This document shows, in pieces, positions 4,220 to 62,586 of a stretch of DNA of 64,000 nucleotides. The first letter of the stretch is position 1. Each line of letters begins with the position of its first letter. Below the pieces are notes generated by a model. That model was not told where the DNA came from and ran no database searches. It worked only from the letters and a program-made list of their open reading frames with translations. Source of the DNA: Neophaeotheca triangularis (Eukaryota); the NCBI GenBank assembly GCA_054600435.1, contig BAAIJX010000013.1, positions 372,001 through 436,000 on the forward strand, in the 5' to 3' direction. The translations under genes were made by a program, and so were the position numbers.

Positions 4220-6162
4220 ATGCTACCCTTCAACGAAACCCTCGGGGAAACAATACCCTCAGATACGCCACACGTGCGTTCGTCTCCTCCTGGGGCACGG
4301 GTCGGATATCTACTGACATCTCTATAGGCTGTCAGTGTCTCTCTCCCAACATGGGAAGCCAATGTCGGCTACGAGGAGGGCAAGGACTGGGTCGTCAGCA
4401 AGATGCAGACCGGCTACCCAAGGTACGTCACGATAATCTAGGCAACAGACGACAAGGTGTTAAATTGATCCCATTCAGATTCTTCATTCATAAATCGATC
4501 AAAAGACTTGCCGCCTCTATCGTAGAGAAACACAGCTCGCCCTCCACTACCAACGCCATGCTCTTCCCCACTCCCCGATGTGCAGCACGATGCCATGATT
4601 TCTTATGCAGTCAGAACAGCGATCTAAGCAAGGACGCCGTCAGAGTTTTGGAATTCGTGCCGCATCCCGAGAAGCTGACTACTGATCCTGCTAAACATGT
4701 AGTTCCCCGAGTCTGCGCTGTGCTCTATCCCAGGGAGTTCTGGCCGACGGCCAAAGTATTCTGGCAACACACTGGTGAGGGTATCTCCAGCAGACGGGCT
4801 GAGTTCTGCGAGAAAGCTTTCGACGAGGGCACAATGGTGGAGAAATCCTCTCTGCGCCAATCGCCACCTCGCTTAGCCAAGGGCCCACGGCGGTACCAGC
4901 GGCCAATGTCTGTTGATATTGGAGGGACTAATGGCGTAGATAGCGCCTCCCAAAGTAACGGCAATGGCGATGCCACTCCAACCGGAGAGCGTACAGATGA
5001 AAGCACCCAATTCGTTGAAGAGCGTTTCGGCCGCAACATGAGCGTAGCTTTCGCAGCACAAGCCAAACTGGCCATCCGCAAACGCATCGCCGGCTTCTTG
5101 ACAGCAGACGAAGACCTCCCGCAATCCCTCGAGCAACCAACCGACACCTCACACGAGCGCACGAAAGACGTCCCCGGCTTCTCCGTTGAAGACGTCTACC
5201 TCCACGCCAGCGGCATGAACGCCATCTTCACCTCCCACCGCATCCTCCGTCTCGCCCGTGGCGAGCTCAAAAGCATCATGTACGGCTTCCCCTACGTCGA
5301 CACGTTGAAAATCCTTGAGAAATTCGGCGCCGGCGCCCACTTCTACGGCCACGGCAACGCCGCCGACCTCGAAGACCTCGAAACCCGCCTTGAAAACGGC
5401 GAACGATTCCTGGCCCTCTACTGCGAATTCCCAGGCAACCCACTCCTCCGCACCTCTGACCTCAAGCGCATCCGCCAGCTCGCCGACAAATTCGACTTCG
5501 CCGTCGTCGTGGACGAAACCATCGGCAACTTCCTCAACATCCACGTCCTCCCCTACGCCGACATTGTCGTCAGCAGCCTAACAAAACTCTTCTCAGGCGA
5601 CAGCAACGTCATGGGCGGCAGCTTGATCCTCAACCCCGAATCCCACTACTACAGCGCCCTGAAAACCGTCCTGGCCCAAGAGTACGAGGACCTGCAATTC
5701 GAAGAGGACTCGCTATACCTCGAGCGCAACAGCCGCGACTTCGTCAGCCGCATCTCCCGCATCAACGCCAACGCCGAGACCATTGCCGAAACGCTAATCG
5801 CCCACCCGCGCGTCAAGCAAGTCTACTACCCCAAGTACGGCGACACGCGCGCCTTCTACGACGACTGCCGGCTCCCGAATGGAGGTTACGGCGGGCTTTT
5901 GAGCGCGACTTTCTACTCCATTGAGGACGCGGCTGTCTTTTATGATAATTTGGATACGCAGAAGGGGCCGAGTTTGGGCACGAATTTCACGCTGAGCTCG
6001 CCTTTTGTGATCTTGGCTCACTATACTGAGCTTGATTGGGCGGCGCAGTTTGGCGTCGAGGCGAGCTTGGTTAGGTTTAGTGTGGGGTTGGAGGAAAACC
6101 AGGCTTTGAAGGCGGTTTTTGAGAGGGCACTGGAAGCTATCCCTCAGCCCAAGGTTGAATGA
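4220..6162 (+). CDS. STR2: Cystathionine gamma-synthase (STR2/met-7 type, PLP enzyme)
   Basis: Two short 5' introns (4274-4327 and ~4423-4478) give ..[28 protein letters not shown]. Motifs [24 protein letters not shown] (PLP Lys), [10 protein letters not shown]. Confidence 0.92.
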
Positions 6163-10630: not shown

Positions 10631-11567
10631 TCAAGCCGGCTGCTCGTAAGCACGCTTGACAATCCTCGAGAACTGCCCGAACTTGACGTCTTCCCTGACG
10701 ACCTGGCCCTTGGCCTCGTTCTCCTTGTTCAGCGGCACCTTGACGGTGTTGCCTTCGATCTTCCAGCCGCACACCTCCTTGACAAAGTGGTCGAAGTCGC
10801 CGCTGCTAACGTTCAACCAGCCCTCCAACAGGTCCCGGCTGACTTCTTGCATGCATTGACTCACAACCACGGCGATGCGGATTCTCATCAATTCCTCGAA
10901 ACCTTGCACGTCTGCTATTAGGTCGGCGTACAGGTCGTCGGAGTTGAGAGTATCCCAGAAAGCTGCGTAGTCGGCGTTGCTGACTTGAGAGTTGAGAAGA
11001 GAGAGGTGTTGGACCGCTTCTGCAAGCGAGCCAGATGAGGGTGGTGTCTGGGTGTTCTTGGAGCTGAGGAGTACGTAAGGTGGGAGAAGTGCGAGACACA
11101 GGCTGAAGTCTGGCGCAGGGAAGACTGTGAGGGCTTTGACGAGGATGTTGGTAATGGTTTCGTCACGTGCGAGGTGAGGGTTGAATTGGTAGCTAGGAGA
11201 GCAGCAGGGTCAGCTGGTTGCTCAACACATGATCTTGTGCGTTTTGAGTGTAGAGCAAGAGAATTTTTCAGATAGAGCTAATATTTATTCGCTTTCATGC
11301 AGGCAGGGCCTGTCAGGTAATAGGAAACGTTGTGGTAGTTTATTCATCATTGAAGATATCGCGAGTGACGCTTGACACGAATAAGTGATATACGTACAGT
11401 TTGAGGAGGGCGAGGTTCGCGTAGCAGTCATATGTCTGGGTCTCGCATTGCTGCGCAACGTATTCTTGGAAGATGCCAGTGGTCTCTGGATTGTACCTGT
11501 CCAAGCCGTTGAGGATGGTGTCGATGTTCTCCGGCCTGTCCGGGCAGTAATCGAAGGCGTTGACCAT
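10631..11567 (-). CDS. eIF3k: Eukaryotic translation initiation factor 3 subunit K
   Basis: Exon 1 [28 protein letters not shown] joins across intron 11193-11397 to [24 protein letters not shown]; ends [13 protein letters not shown]. Confidence 0.93.
11264..11354 (-). ncRNA. Intronic box C/D snoRNA (18S and 25S rRNA guides)
   Basis: Inside the 205-nt eIF3k intron: C box ATGATGA (11350-11344), D' CTGA (11316-11313), D CTGA (11271-11268). Antisense elements TATTAGCTCTA and ACGTTTCCTATTA match conserved rRNA segments. Confidence 0.85.
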
Positions 11568-45021: not shown

Positions 45022-45873
45022 ATGTTCCACCAACTCCACACCCTCACCCTCCTAGCCCTCTCAACCCTCCTCCACTCAACCCAAGCCCACCCAACCTCCC
45101 CACGCCAGCAAATCCTACAATCCCTACAACCGCCCACGCCCCTGCCTCCATACGCCCACCCACCGCCAGAACCGCAACTACAGCCCGCGTTCCGAGAAAT
45201 CGGCGTCTCGAGCGAGCTGCGGGAAGCGGCGCAGAATTCCGTCGGAGTGGTGTTCACTTTTCTCGCCATGGAGGATTCGGAAGAGTGGGTGGGGGAAAGG
45301 GGAGGGGAAGGTGATGAAGGCCTTGGGGATGGGGTTAGGGAGGTTGAGGAAAGGGTGCATTTTTGGCTGCCGTTGGGAAAGCGGGTTTGGTGTCGTGAGT
45401 TAAACTCTTCTTGTTTTTGTCTTCGGTGGTTCGGGGCTCTGGGATCCTTTACGTTGTTGTAGTTGACGGGGTGTCGTGCGCTTGCCGTGAAAATCGCGTG
45501 ACGCGATCTTTCCAAGCTGACCTTGAAAACCGCAGGTGATGTCCCAGCTCTTCCTCTCCATCCCCTTGCCGCTCGGATCACGACTATGATCCACTCGACT
45601 GCCGAGCTGGCGGGTCCGGAAGTTCTGGGCCAAGTCGGTTGTCAACTGCACTTTCGCGATACTGCGTCTTCTCCGGACAGCAAAGTTGAGGCGCGAGACT
45701 TGGCCGCCACGGGGACTACAGTGACTTTGAAGAAACTCGAGGAGCTGGTGCGATTGGTCGACGCGGGGAGCTGGATCGGCGCGAGAAGCGTGGATGAGGA
45801 GGTCGAGGCCGGTTCCGGAGATGAGCGGGTCTGGGTGGAAGCCGGAGAGCTCGAGTGGGTGGAGTGTTCGTGA
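45022..45873 (+). CDS. Hypothetical secreted protein
   Basis: Signal-peptide-like MFHQLHTLTLLALSTLLHSTQA. Intron 45395-45535 (GTGAGT..CTGAC..CAG) joins two ORFs in frame; ends LEWVECS*. Confidence 0.65.
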
Positions 45874-47961: not shown

Positions 47962-48849
47962 TCAGACCTCCTGCGTTCGCTCTGTCCTACCCGACCAGTA
48001 CCCTCTAGCTAGCGTTAAAACCCAACCCATAATCATGATAGCCCAGTGGAGCCAATTAGGTGTGCTGTCGAGCACTTCACCAGCCCAGTCGTAACGATGC
48101 TTGCCCCAAAGAAGCTCCGCACTACCCTCGTCCAATGTCACCATCGAAACCAAAGGATCCAGGCCAAGCGTCATCCTCACAGCAGCCTTGAGCGCAAAAA
48201 GCAGTATCACTCGTCCCAGTCTCGAAGTCAAACCAGATGCCGTGAGCGAGGATTGCCTCCAAAGACGCTTGGATAGGCGAAAGCTACCGTATCCGCAACA
48301 GGAAACGTACAGTGACAACGCCACATAGTTGAAACCCAACTGCACTCCTCTACGCATCGAGGGCGCTGTGATGCTCTCACTTTGCAGCAGCAGTACGGCA
48401 TTTGCCAAAGCGGCCGTTACAAGGGGCCCGAGCAGCCATAGTAAGAGCGGTCTGGAGGCGTGCTTGAACTCCGGCATGGGGTGCTCTCGCTTGTCGTCAC
48501 GCGAAATCGCAGCCTGCGCTTCTGGCTCTCTTCCACGAGCCACAAAATACTGGCGGAGAGAACTCTGCGCGGATTCGCAGCTTAACAGGTAGAGTACAGC
48601 CGCACCCATTTGCAATGCCCAAGGCATCATTGACAGCCAGAGCAGGAATTTGGTCCAGAGCGGTTCGGCTATTGCGTAGATCAAGACTGCGATGATGGTG
48701 GAACGGAGTATGGGCGCAAGCCTTGCGTCGGGAGGCTGGCTCTCGGCCACCACCCACTGGTGCAACGGGAGGCATATATCGTTGAGGATTGTGAGGGAAT
48801 TGAGGATAAGGATCAAGGGCCTTGCGAAGGCTAGTTCCGATGTGGCCAT
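47962..48849 (-). CDS. Orphan multi-pass membrane protein (295 aa)
   Basis: ATG-initiated intronless ORF with about 6-7 hydrophobic segments. No recognised family. Confidence 0.55.
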   Translation of the reverse strand: MATSELAFARPLILILNSLTILNDICLPLHQWVVAESQPPDARLAPILRSTIIAVLIYAIAEPLWTKFLLWLSMMPWALQMGAAVLYLLSCESAQSSLRQYFVARGREPEAQAAISRDDKREHPMPEFKHASRPLLLWLLGPLVTAALANAVLLLQSESITAPSMRRGVQLGFNYVALSLYVSCCGYGSFRLSKRLWRQSSLTASGLTSRLGRVILLFALKAAVRMTLGLDPLVSMVTLDEGSAELLWGKHRYDWAGEVLDSTPNWLHWAIMIMGWVLTLARGYWSGRTERTQEV

Positions 48850-49713: not shown

Positions 49714-50031
49714 TTAGGAGATGGCGCGTGAAACGAAGAAAGAATTCGCATTATCGTCTGGAATCGTGAAGCAGATGTCCGTCGATGTCGTGTAGATCTG
49801 ATCTTGACAGTTGCTGTCGGAGTAAACGGTCATGGTCTGGCCAGCGGTGAAATCTGCCATGATCATAGATCGTGCCTGCTGCAACTCGGAGATGTCTTTG
49901 CAGTTTTGGAAAAATGGAATGTCGTATGAGTAGAGTCTCTCGCCGTGGCAACCTTCGGAAATGTAACCATCGACATTTACAGCGGCGGCAGCTTGCAGCA
50001 GTGTAGCTGCGATGGCGGCGGTAAAGAGCAT
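49714..50031 (-). CDS. Small secreted 4-Cys protein (105 aa), single beta/gamma-crystallin-like domain
   Basis: Signal MLFTAAIAATLLQAAAA; two Y-x4-C..S Greek-key-like halves; homologous to the N-terminus of the 51658 gene. Confidence 0.82.
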   Translation of the reverse strand: MLFTAAIAATLLQAAAAVNVDGYISEGCHGERLYSYDIPFFQNCKDISELQQARSMIMADFTAGQTMTVYSDSNCQDQIYTTSTDICFTIPDDNANSFFVSRAIS

Positions 50032-51657: not shown

Positions 51658-53001
51658 ATGGCAGTATCATGGCGCTCTCTAGCGGTCTTGTTTTTGCCTG
51701 TCGCCAGCTGCGTTAATGTCACCTTCTACGATGGCAACAATTGCTCCGGCTATCGTCTATATGGCGGTTCAATCGACAAAGCATTGCCTTGCTACGATCT
51801 TTCCGACTATGCAGTCTCGAACTCCAGCTCTCTCGAGAACCTTGCACCCGGCCAGGTGGTACACTTTTACTCCGACGCAGCGTGCGAGAATGAGGTTTAC
51901 AAGGCCGAGCAGGAGGTCTGCCACGTTCACACCCGTTTCGACGTAGCATCGTTCAAGATCGCCATGTCCGAGCCCACCGGCCCAGAGGCTGATGGTAGAA
52001 TCGCTGTAACGACTACCGACCTTGCCGTCTACAAGATGGACACCTACGAGGGCGAAGGGACCGTGGCACCTGTTGTGCGCATCCCTTTGTCCACTTACTT
52101 TTTTGCTTACTACGGGCTTGAAGTCCTGACGGGTGCGGTCACTCTGTACAGTGTTGCTTCCACTTGCTACGGAGCCAGATTTGGAGACCCAAAGTCCATC
52201 TTCGACTGCATCGTCTCCCCCGTCTCCACAGTCCTGGCCTACTTTCTCGGCAAAAGGTTACAAAACAACATCCAGGTCCAAACTCGCGGCCGCCTGGACG
52301 CAGCGCAAGGCACCGTCACCAACGTCAAGCGAGGCCTTTTAGAAGAAGCCGCAGACCACGAATACCTCACGGCCTTCCTCAATGGCACCGACACTACGCC
52401 CCGGCACGTAGGCTACACGACCCACGACCTCGGCAACGGCGAGCAAACGTCCCCCGTCTACGAATTCGCCAACCTCGGCACCGGCGAGCCCATGCACATG
52501 GCCGCTTTCTGGCACGCCGGCAGCGAAAGCTACGTGCACCGCATGTACCACCCGCACGCGGCCGAGGCGGAGGAGGCTGCGAAGGACGAGCTCAGCAAAC
52601 GCCAGGGCCCCGGGTACCTCTCGCTCCGCTACAACAGCGGCGGGCTGGAATTCCAGGCTTGCAACTACAACACCGCGGCCGACCGGAGCGTGTTCCAGGG
52701 CCTCGGCATCAACGACCACTACAGCAAGATCTACGAGGATTTGACGTGCCTGTTCGATCCCACGAGCTACCAGGACGATGCCGGCTTCTATTTTGACGTG
52801 TAAGTCTTCTACTTGTTCCCTTCGTGTGGGAACTTTGTCGTCATGGCGCCGGTTACTGACGTGCTTATCCCTCGCAGTTACAATGGCCAACGCAACGTCG
52901 TGTCCGGGATCAAGATAAGGGCTTTCGATGACAACAGGGGCGGTATCGCGAACCTCAACTGCGATTTTCCTACGTCGCAGAACCAGCAATGTCTCAACTG
53001 A
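51658..53001 (+). CDS. Secreted Kex2-processed preproprotein (421 aa), putative K1-like killer toxin with N-terminal crystallin-like domain
   Basis: Signal peptide, 4-Cys domain, hydrophobic hairpin around CYGARFGDPKSIFDC, KR sites at 52327 and 52597, Cys-containing C-terminal chain. Intron 52800-52877. Confidence 0.75.
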
Positions 53002-60966: not shown

Positions 60967-62586
60967 CTACTCCCCAGGCATCCCCCTCCTCAAATTCTCA
61001 AACCGACTCCCAGGATACTCCAGACAATTCCACTGCACCTCCAACCTCTTCCCCCCGTACCCACCCATTTCTTGCGAGACGAGGTTGATAACACTCTGAC
61101 TCGAGTTTCCGGCAAAATCGCCGCTGGTCTCCCACCACATTGCGCCGCCTAATTTGTTCTGCTCAATGTACGCGACCTTCTTGGCGGCGACTTCGAGAGA
61201 GTCGTAGGAGATCATGGTTTTGGTGGTCGGGTTGTAGAGGTAGGAGGCTACGGCTTCGGGGTCGTAGTGGGATTCGAAACCTGGGAGGGGGAGGGCCTGG
61301 GAAGAGGGGTGGGTTAGTTTGGTGGGGTTGGAGAAAGGGGGGGAGGAAGGATTCAGGTGGGTTGTGGAGGAAGTGGTGGAGTGTCAGATTAGATCAAGTT
61401 TATTTTCCACGCCCATTGCTGTCGGTCTTCGCCACTCGCCGGAACCACGTGGTGGGTTGGGTGCGAGAGCTGTAATCAATGGAAGAGAGAGCTCGGCGTT
61501 TTGCTCTATCATCATGCTGTGGTGCGAGGGGAAAGAGAAAAGACTGCGAACTCAACGTACCTTGTAGTCCCAGACACCATTTTCCCAACTGCCGCCTCCA
61601 ACACCATTGTACGGGTGTCCAGGCCCATCAGTCTGCGTAAACGCACGTCCATAGAGTGGCATACCCAGCACGATCTTCGGAGACCTCACGCCATTCTTGA
61701 CGTACCAGTGGATGGCACTGTGGGTATCAAAAGGCGTGCTGGTAGGGTTCGACCGACTTTTGTAGAGGTTTGCTTGGTGGCCAGCTGTCGCGTCCCAAGA
61801 GCCGGCAAAATCGTAAGCCATCATGTTCCAGAAGTCGAGGTACGCGTCCATTTCCTTAAGACGCAACCAACGACTGTTCGAAGGACCGGCAGGACACGCA
61901 ATGGTCAAAAGGAAGTGGGGTCGAGAAGGAAGCGTCGCGGAATAGGCTTCCAGTTCATGTCGGGTGGCGGCGAGTAGCTTGACGTAGTCATTGGCCTCTG
62001 CGTCGTTCTTCGGGTACTCCCAATCAACGTCCAGACCATCGAAGCCATAGTCTTTGAGCAACTTGACAGCGCTGAAGGCGAAATTCTTGCGGCCTTGCTT
62101 TGTGGAAGCCGGTTGCGGGAAGTTCGAGCTGTAGGTCCAGCCACCGATACTGAGCAAAGTCTTGAAGTTGCGATTCCTCTTCTTGTGGAGGTACATTTGC
62201 TTGAGAGAGCCGTAGAGATTCTCGCCGACATCATTCCACGAGTCTCCTTCGTAATGCTTCTGTTCGTCCGACCATGAGTCCGTCAAATACACTTCACCGG
62301 ACTCGGGACGGATGTTGGCGAAGGAGTACAACACGTGCGTGAGTTTGTCCGCTGGGACATCCTGAGGTTGATGATTGCGGCCGTAAATTGCCCAATTGAC
62401 ATAATAGGCTACCGAGCGGTAGCCCTCTTGGTTGGACATGGTTGTGGCTGCCTCTGCCGGGTTCGTAGCGTACTCGTTATTGCCAGTCGACCGTGGGATT
62501 GCTTTGTGTCGAAGGTCTCGCGCTGAGGCATAGTTAGGGGAGAGAGCAAACGCAGCAAGAAGACAATGCACCACCCATCTGGCCAT
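60967..62586 (-). CDS. Secreted GH18 chitinase (class V / subgroup A)
   Basis: Signal peptide; [45 protein letters not shown]. Intron 61297-61560. Confidence 0.95.
61380..61519 (-). ncRNA. Intronic box C/D guide RNA targeting U2 snRNA (G25)
   Basis: In the 264-nt chitinase intron: C box ATGATGA (61515-61509) and D box CTGA (61387-61384), preceded by ACTTGATCTAA, which is complementary to fungal U2 UUAGAUCAAGU. Confidence 0.75.

Follow-up and report, generated by a model that had tools for sequence, protein, structure and literature searches.

A spliced gene with a killer-preprotoxin layout

The 64,000-nucleotide stretch of Neophaeotheca triangularis DNA analysed here (contig BAAIJX010000013.1, positions 372,001 to 436,000; hereafter the window) carries a plus-strand gene for a 421-residue toxin-like protein, which we read, with a probability of about 0.65, as a chromosomal K45-branch preprotoxin of the K1 superfamily of membrane-active antifungal killer toxins. 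Neophaeotheca triangularis is a black yeast of saline habitats (PMC13000284). The gene runs from an ATG at 51658 to a TGA stop at 52999-53001 and holds one intron: exon 1 (51658..52799) encodes residues 1-380 plus two bases of Val381, the 78-nt intron (52800..52877) reads GTAAGT..CGCAG with a branch-like ACTGAC at 52855, and exon 2 (52878..53001) supplies the end of the beta region, the last core strand, C409, C419 and the stop codon. The NCBI protein P0001 (421 residues), annotated as hypothetical, is identical to the spliced product, splice included. Contigs of sequencing runs X1 and X2 cover parts of the stretch only; one contig of X1 (depth 2.9; the RNA status of the run is a guess) contains the 52799-52878 joint, and this single contig confirms the splice. 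An intron also lies at the matching place in the toxin homologue of a second locus, L004, described below. The first-pass annotation had drawn the element at 51960..53001, which has the correct stop and is the 3' two-thirds of the gene, and had taken the protein to end in ..CD as K1 does; with the intron removed the chain runs past ..NCDF to its C-terminus at ..PTSQNQQCLN. The gene is single-copy in the N. triangularis genome, where the sole other match is the small neighbour at 49714-50031. The GC content at third codon positions is 0.86 in the gamma/beta part of exon 1 (52333-52797) against 0.65-0.66 in the crystallin and alpha parts, which may reflect mosaic origin or codon bias.

The protein begins with a putative signal peptide (residues 1-18, 51658..51711; from hydropathy and the family alignment) and a domain of beta-gamma-crystallin fold (19-103, 51712..51966; Cys 29, 45, 76 and 88), modelled at a predicted local distance difference test score (pLDDT) of 91-97 in blocks across residues 21-100. 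An alpha region follows (104-225, 51967..52332), with a hydrophobic stretch at 148-169, a C170-C184 pair and a central helix at 178-200, then a gamma region (226-315, 52333..52602) with a helix, a four-strand sheet and an NGT sequon at residue 242 (52381), and finally a beta region (316-421, 52603..52998, spanning the intron) of strand-helix-strand-strand order with Cys 335, 364, 409 and 419. Predicted Kex2 sites separate alpha from gamma (NVKR, with KR at residues 224-225, 52327..52332) and gamma from beta (LSKR, with KR at 314-315, 52597..52602); both sit in low-confidence loops of the structure model. A further dibasic GKR occurs at residues 199-200, in a column that is dibasic in just 1/18 aligned family members. 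The only cysteines of alpha are C170 and C184, which bound CYGARFGDPKSIFDC (residues 170-184, 52165-52209). This motif, the two KR sites and the sequon are all present in the letters where the first-pass annotation had placed them. Its two hydrophobic segments around the motif are likewise present and are moderate (Kyte-Doolittle peaks over 19 residues of 1.20 and 1.37), and its final chain from ..GGLEFQAC contains that string in beta, which starts 13 residues earlier with QGPGYL.

A profile built from P0001 and its Hortaea werneckii homologue, run over 1.84 billion proteins, retrieved 77 representatives with E<=0.001. The 98 family proteins collected, redundant cluster members and fragments included, comprise 47 with the N-terminal domain and the toxin core, 26 with the core only and 25 with the N-terminal domain only, a split that is a sorting and not a test, since the profiles were built from 18 of the same 98 proteins. 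All the named proteins that contain both parts come from Dothideomycetes (Hortaea, Zasmidium, Decorospora, Phaeosphaeria and Pyrenophora). K314-R315, C170, C184 and C335 are invariant across the 18 near-full-length members, the R225 column is dibasic in 14/18, and all ten mature cysteines occur in 15/18 rows, the remaining 3 rows coming from gene models with truncations or gaps. The conserved Kex2-type sites and the predicted fold bear out the alpha-gamma-beta layout first proposed from the letters. Mean pairwise identity over 153 pairs is 31% in gamma, 28% in beta and 23% in alpha; what had been described as a hydrophilic spacer between the KR sites is the best conserved region and is predicted to fold as the helix and four strands noted above.

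Core residues 152-413 are homologous to a family from Onygenales (hhalign 97.2%, E 2.9e-11, 246 columns) whose layout is signal, short propeptide (delta), alpha, NKR, gamma and beta, with no crystallin. Because these homologues lack the N-terminal domain, the crystallin is an add-on to the classical killer-preprotoxin layout. The crystallin-free K45-like Onygenales proteins (P0077 and P0091-P0098) come from Helicocarpus, Emmonsiellopsis, Arthroderma and Blastomyces, and several Onygenales members end in a DEL-like or basic tail. Zasmidium cellare has at least three diverged members (P0016, P0017 and P0025), two of them in one strain, and the family is therefore multicopy in some genomes. Public gene models often look wrong (P0002, P0101, P0004, P0021, P0040, P0048 and P0071), with conserved-cysteine gaps in Hortaea, a missing last exon or N-termini inside the crystallin; such faults may explain why the crystallin fusion went unnoticed. 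A 13-member cluster (P0014 and P0102-P0113), mostly of 191 residues and ending just past the first alpha cysteine, probably represents the first exon of a member whose intron comes earlier, the alternative being a natural crystallin-plus-helix truncation.

Sequence comparison beyond the family returned little. Pfam held no family for the toxin-like protein or its exon 2, no Pfam match to DUF5341 was seen at E<=0.5 in the 41 family proteins scanned, and PDB sequence searches with P0001 and alignments A4 and A6 gave nothing below E 0.017. The best ESM Atlas scores (0.86 and 0.87, below the 0.9 mark) fell on Ascomycota clusters that serve as leads only, and a profile search aimed at K45 and yeast homologues by sequence yielded 10 matches among the best 8000 candidates, all of them known family proteins.

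Predicted fold and probable kinship to K45

AlphaFold2 modelled the 421-residue protein from a 56-row alignment at a mean pLDDT of 75.4 and a predicted template modelling score (pTM) of 0.57, and the crystallin-free member P0088 from a 49-row alignment at 76.7 and 0.78, respectively. When searched with Foldseek against BFVD, a library of predicted viral protein structures, the first model matched the K45 preprotoxin at E 2.9e-6 (prob 1.00, 259 columns, 17% identity), the sole match at E<=0.001 among the at least 500 listed, and the P0088 model again matched K45 at E 9.4e-9 (template modelling score 0.47) as its sole match under E 0.001 in a listing of at least 500. The comparison of predicted structures thus found a killer-toxin likeness, to K45 ahead of K1L, and the remote kinship to ionophoric killer toxins that had been suspected from the letters is supported at the level of models in both fold searches.

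The order of secondary-structure elements points the same way. The K1 superfamily, comprising K1, K2, K45 and K74, is described in PMC13211469 as sharing a central alpha helix that is buried and held by a disulfide, and an antiparallel gamma/beta sheet with strand-helix-strand-strand ending beta; a similar toxin grouping is proposed in PMC13404059. Our model places the central helix at 178-200, four strands within 249-297, and then a strand (327-336), a helix (351-365) and two strands (376-382 and 388-398), and the P0088 model has the same order of elements. C170 closes a helix at 163-169 and C184 falls within the N-terminal half of helix 178-200, the two forming the predicted pair. By element order, then, the modelled protein has the superfamily core of helix, sheet and end of beta, and its central helix DCIVSPVSTVLA resembles the K45 helix DCVVGAVDTGVTLG. 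Solved structures gave no core match with Z>=5; the weak core matches include the pilins 2ret, 4noa and 5bw0 (Z 3.3-3.7), which are also listed for K1-superfamily models in PMC13211469. Neither 1KVD (SMKT) nor 1KPT (KP4) was among the best 50 structural matches to the precursor models used as queries.

The spacing of landmarks provides a further comparison. The intervals between C170, C184, R225, R315, C364, C419 and the C-terminus are 14, 41, 90, 49, 55 and 2 residues, against 14, 42, 88, 44, 56 and 3 in K45, so that the summed difference is 10 for K45 and 58-61 for K1, K1L, K2, K21 and KHS. K45 itself (S. paradoxus M45 satellite; A0A2D1CM61; ATN38271.1; PMC13211469) shares with our protein the predicted core fold, the alpha-gamma-beta order, the C-x13-C pair before the central helix, a C-terminal cysteine, the lack of a spare inter-chain cysteine, and regions of similar length (gamma 90 residues here and 88 in K45; beta 106 here and 103 in K45). 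It differs in that our protein has a crystallin-fold domain in place of delta and four beta cysteines rather than two, and is encoded by an intron-containing nuclear gene with two conserved neighbours. PSI-BLAST homologues in Dothideomycetes, as counted in the tables of PMC13211469, number 67 for K45 and 0 for K1/K1L. Chromosomal K45-like genes in filamentous fungi are therefore already known, and the 421-residue protein, whose length passes that paper's filter, may be among the 67. The first-pass view of a chromosomal toxin gene in a filamentous fungus is less novel than was assumed, superfamily homologues being already in print; what is new is the fused crystallin and the conserved neighbour genes.

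The fused crystallin and the three-gene island

Structural matches to residues 19-103 agreed with the crystallin-like N-terminal domain noticed in the first pass: they include 4fd9 (Z 8.3, root-mean-square deviation (rmsd) 2.3, 79 of 92 residues aligned), MiAMP1 (Z 6.9), the StcE X409 glycan-binding module (5.4) and WmKT (5.0), and the first 20 matches were all crystallin-fold. Neither the fused nor the free crystallin described below contains a match to the Ca-binding clamp motif of microbial members, N/D-N/D-x-x-S/T-S. In having the fold and no Ca clamp the fused domain resembles WmKT (HM-1), MiAMP1 and the C. fulvum proteins Ecp4, Ecp7 and CfCE72 (10.1101/127746); MiAMP1 and Ecp4 differ in their six-cysteine pattern, as against four cysteines here. 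K45 alpha begins 66 residues ahead of its first cysteine (PMC13211469), an offset that maps to residue 104 of our protein and thus places the crystallin where the delta propeptide would be. Instead of a short delta propeptide with a basic site at its end, the protein has the 85-residue crystallin-fold domain.

Whether this domain would remain attached to alpha depends on the linker. The 421-residue protein has no dibasic site before alpha, and a lone Arg115 (52000), preceded by Gly, offers a possible monobasic cut behind the crystallin. Counted over the profile-search representatives that have both parts and a readable cysteine pair, those with a short linker lack a dibasic site between the crystallin and the alpha cysteines in 25/30 cases and have no Arg at all in the first part of the linker in 16/30, which favours retention. 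A dibasic site stands behind the crystallin in the other 5/30 and in 7/7 long-linker, Pleosporales-type representatives, and these count against a permanently tethered domain. By sequence the family seems to hold both tethered and releasable forms, and for the 421-residue protein we lean slightly towards a crystallin that stays on alpha, in a chain with a computed mass of ~22 kDa, rather than one cut off at Arg115.

The strongest competing account builds on release. It adds a cut on the C-terminal side of the crystallin, made by Kex2 or some other protease and placed in our protein at Arg115, so that the precursor would yield a free WmKT/MiAMP1-like antimicrobial together with an ordinary K45-type alpha/beta toxin, much as in CfCE72 of Cladosporium fulvum, in which a KP6-like domain and a crystallin are joined across a kexin site (10.1101/127746). 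That fusion shows that the fusing of killer folds has precedent, and CfCE72 resembles our protein in joining a crystallin to a killer-toxin fold; its KP6-like domain is ahead of the crystallin with the kexin site between them, whereas here the crystallin precedes a K45-type preprotoxin, mostly with no dibasic site. Release would also fit the KR straight behind the crystallin in P0005, P0013 and P0027, at about the position of Arg115, the long-linker sites, the Arg found in the front of the linker in 14/30 short-linker members, the monobasic delta/alpha sites of K1 (LLPR44) and K2 (PMC13211469), the mapping of the K45 alpha start to residue 104 at the crystallin end, and the pTM of 0.57 for the whole model versus 0.78 for the core-only model, which suggests that the crystallin is not packed on the core. 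However, Gly would be a poor Kex2 P2 residue, a basic one being described as the requirement (10.1101/2024.10.11.617966), more than half of the short-linker members have no Arg at that place, and a free crystallin gene already adjoins the toxin gene. We consider release of two separate agents from this precursor rather improbable.

That free crystallin gene encodes a secreted crystallin-fold protein of 105 residues on the minus strand (49714..50031), head-to-head with the toxin gene at 1.6 kb and assigned to the fold by sequence. It aligns with the fused domain by BLASTP at 31% identity over 70 residues (E 1e-11) and matches PF09117 (MiAMP1) at E 0.14 and 12.9 bits, below the cut-off of 26; runs X1 and X2 gave contigs over part of it. 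Beyond it, also on the minus strand, lies a gene for a multi-pass membrane protein of 295 residues (47962..48849), single-copy in the genome and without a Pfam match at E<=1, which is a candidate immunity factor.

Of 230 pattern matches in a metagenome scan two were confirmed, L004 and L005; at 99.98% identity they count as one locus. In L004 a toxin gene with 36% identity to ours has a free crystallin gene head-to-head 1.3 kb upstream and, directly downstream, a gene for a 311-residue homologue of the membrane protein with 25% identity end to end. The membrane-protein pair has a local score of 116 (z 13-15, 0/2000 shuffles) and is the reciprocal best among 199 and 63 open reading frames (ORFs); plain BLASTP covers the first 79 columns only (E 1e-5), and tblastn missed the homologue, for which Pfam likewise has no family. 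No other ORF of the window has a match in L004. The window set is flanked by SYS1 and COX6B-family genes and a WLM protease, and that of L004 by RRN6 and a PhoD-like gene; in N. triangularis RRN6 and the PhoD-like gene are on a different contig, separated by 5 kb that contain no island gene. The grouping of toxin, free crystallin and membrane protein is therefore shared with a second fungus, in which it occupies a non-syntenic site.

A perfect 15-nt direct repeat (L004:6060-6074 and 10658-10672; 0/2000 shuffles) brackets exactly the three genes of L004 and could be an insertion scar or a recombination site. No flanking repeat was found around the window island, where the longest shared word was 9 nt, a length reached in 1145/2000 shuffles, and no marked repeat-induced point mutation or GC anomaly was seen there. 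Separately, a 43-nt direct repeat (86%; L004:4350-4392 and 5982-6024) brackets an unrelated two-exon gene on the minus strand (4489-5993), located between RRN6 and the island and without a Pfam match for its 352-residue part, which is possibly a second inserted gene.

In a tree of 56 crystallin domains (85 columns, with 6 redundant or gapped rows left out) the free and fused forms are separated by a 97/83 split, and the free crystallins of the window and L004 share one supported subgroup. Because the free forms make a separate clade with this shared subgroup, the toxin/free-crystallin pair is old and the free crystallin an ancient paralogue of the fused domain, and an origin of the free crystallin as a recent local copy of the fused domain was rejected, the two being on opposite sides of the split. 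Among 330 free-fused comparisons (10 x 33 proteins) 3 match by record in source and in the exact size of the longest contig where 0.05 would be expected; these are indirect support for further toxin/free-crystallin pairs.

Two other genes of the window deserve mention. A secreted GH18 chitinase (61552-62586, minus strand, 8.5 kb away) was examined as a possible zymocin-like partner and discounted, as it has no match in L004 and housekeeping genes lie in between. An ORF of 146 residues at 45022-45462 (plus strand), with a signal-peptide-like start and a proline-rich stretch, adjoins the flanking genes of the island on the left and is a small secreted protein candidate with no Pfam family under E 0.06.

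Putative mechanism and competing readings

In the mechanism we propose, the C170-C184 bond would form in the endoplasmic reticulum and pin the central alpha helix, which the gamma and beta strands would bury. Kex2 in the Golgi would then cut after R225 and R315, and gamma would be discarded. Since alpha has two cysteines and not three, a non-covalent alpha/beta heterodimer is expected to be exported, with all cysteines paired within chains, as modelled for K45 and K2. The crystallin would most likely be kept on alpha as a docking module for cell wall or glycan, and at the target fungus the freed alpha helix would permeabilise the plasma membrane. The free crystallin and the membrane protein would be parts of the same unit. 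Immunity in K2 is attributed to the N-terminal prepro peptide and in K1 to alpha plus the start of gamma (PMC13211469; PMC13442484). With the N-terminus taken by the crystallin, it is reasonable to infer, from co-location at two loci, that immunity resides in a membrane protein of its own; we tentatively suggest that the membrane protein protects the producer in place of the lost N-terminal immunity peptide, the weakest step of the scheme and one on which we would not wager at even odds. The fullest version is more speculative still: black yeasts and other Dothideomycetes would share a mobile killer island of three genes, in which a K45-type pore former with its own crystallin targeting domain is accompanied by a free crystallin, as a second subunit or a self-protective decoy, and by a dedicated membrane immunity protein of a new family.

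Several observations weigh against this reading. Toxicity, cleavage, target binding and immunity are deduced from an ORF, its splicing, its conserved sites, a predicted fold and the neighbours, that is, from sequence and predicted structure. The K45 matches compare predicted models with one another, at rmsd 6.9 and 11.5 A, and the 421-residue and P0088 models share alignment rows and are thus not independent. Residues 134-161, which include the first hydrophobic stretch, have pLDDT <50, and the alpha helices are only moderately hydrophobic. The available text of PMC13211469 describes no functional study of K45 beyond its discovery, and the mechanism is therefore borrowed from K1 and K2. The three-gene set was seen at two independent loci only, and no further homologue of the membrane protein turned up among the other proteins collected. 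Alpha is the least conserved toxin region in our family, and it is reported as the most conserved domain among K1 homologues (10.1101/2024.10.11.617966), a comparison in which our values are taken within the family and the published ones against K1.

The conservation pattern is also the first argument for a protein that has the K45-like fold and is no antifungal pore former, but a secreted, Kex2-matured protein with a lectin-like, cell-surface, antibacterial or host-directed role, of which gamma, the best conserved region, would be a stable functional part. The low-Z resemblance of the core to non-toxic pilins, the single unexpanded gene copy, the relatives in plant pathogens and Onygenales, and the varied roles of secreted proteins with crystallin and KP folds (10.1101/127746; PMC13525658) are all compatible with such a role. 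The invariant gamma/beta KR and the alpha cysteine pair, however, fit the maturation pattern of toxins, and a scattered distribution at non-syntenic sites, together with a dedicated membrane gene, is in keeping with toxin-immunity units (cf. 10.1101/2024.10.25.620242), so that we judge this account unlikely.

Much less likely is the first-pass assignment to the K1/K1L (KKT) family, with a disulfide-linked alpha/beta heterodimer. K1L was the next killer toxin in both fold searches, at E 6.7e-3 (fourth, prob 0.87) and 2.6e-2 (prob 0.41), and K1, which may be outside the library, was not among the best 50 matches listed. The four beta cysteines provide both C335 and C364 as landmarks, and replacing C364 by C335 reverses the spacing result, which then favours K1L (summed difference 30) and K1 (35) over K45 (56), a further point against a K45 affinity. 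The K1 landmarks cited in the first pass agree with GERK100, C95 and C107 (PMC13211469), and our protein shares the superfamily core and the dibasic processing pattern with this family (PMC7888664, 10.1101/2024.10.11.617966). K45 is nevertheless the better match by 3 to 6 orders of magnitude. K1 and K1L have three alpha cysteines (C92/C95/C107 and C91/C94/C105; Table S5, PMC13211469) and an inter-chain disulfide, whereas our two alpha and four beta cysteines leave none spare for such a bond. Homologues of K1 are reported from Saccharomycotina only (PMC13211469; PMC7888664; 10.1101/2024.10.11.617966) and are mostly subtelomeric and multicopy, in contrast to a single copy among housekeeping genes, and K1 has its immunity within alpha and gamma rather than in a separate candidate membrane protein. 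On the models, the protein is best placed in the K45 branch of the superfamily and outside the K1/K1L family.

An unrelated secreted enzyme with incidental KR sites has a negligible chance: some of the weak structural matches are nucleotidyltransferase-fold chains (Z up to 4.4), but an unrelated enzyme family was looked for and found neither in Pfam, nor among PDB sequences, nor among core structures at the thresholds given above, and the invariant residues are cysteines, glycines and KR, with no catalytic set.

For the K45-branch toxin reading, more distant systems supply partial parallels. K74/KTS1 (Leotiomycetes and Eurotiomycetes), K2, K21 and KHS are likewise chromosomal K1-superfamily genes in filamentous fungi with predicted non-covalent heterodimers; the K74 list of PMC13211469 has no Dothideomycetes, K2, K21 and KHS carry DUF5341 whereas our protein does not match it, and K2 has its immunity peptide where we find the crystallin. 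The zymocin-like clusters of Pezizomycotina (10.1101/2024.10.25.620242) are also small nuclear toxin clusters with introns at non-syntenic sites, with a free copy of the binding domain (LysM-only genes) and a candidate immunity gene. They differ in encoding tRNases and GH18 chitinases, in being reported there from no Dothideomycetes, and in having no likeness to our genes in sequence or fold.

We found neither the crystallin fusion nor the three-gene set described in the literature, of which few subscription papers were covered, and the word crystallin is absent from the main text of PMC13211469. How K1-type toxins choose their targets and how producers are protected are long-open questions, made hard to study by the one precursor that both functions share. 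If our reading is correct, a separate targeting domain and a separate immunity protein would make each testable one gene at a time, the membrane protein would be the first case of immunity encoded apart from a K1-superfamily toxin, and two unrelated killer-toxin folds would be combined in one mature toxin. Salt-tolerant black yeasts would then carry killer systems, and antifungal leads would be added. The precursor models obtained here, at mean pLDDT 75-77, are above those of the yeast toxins K1, K1L, K2, K21, KHS, K45 and K74 (35-68; Table S3, PMC13211469), which makes these proteins better targets for a first solved structure.

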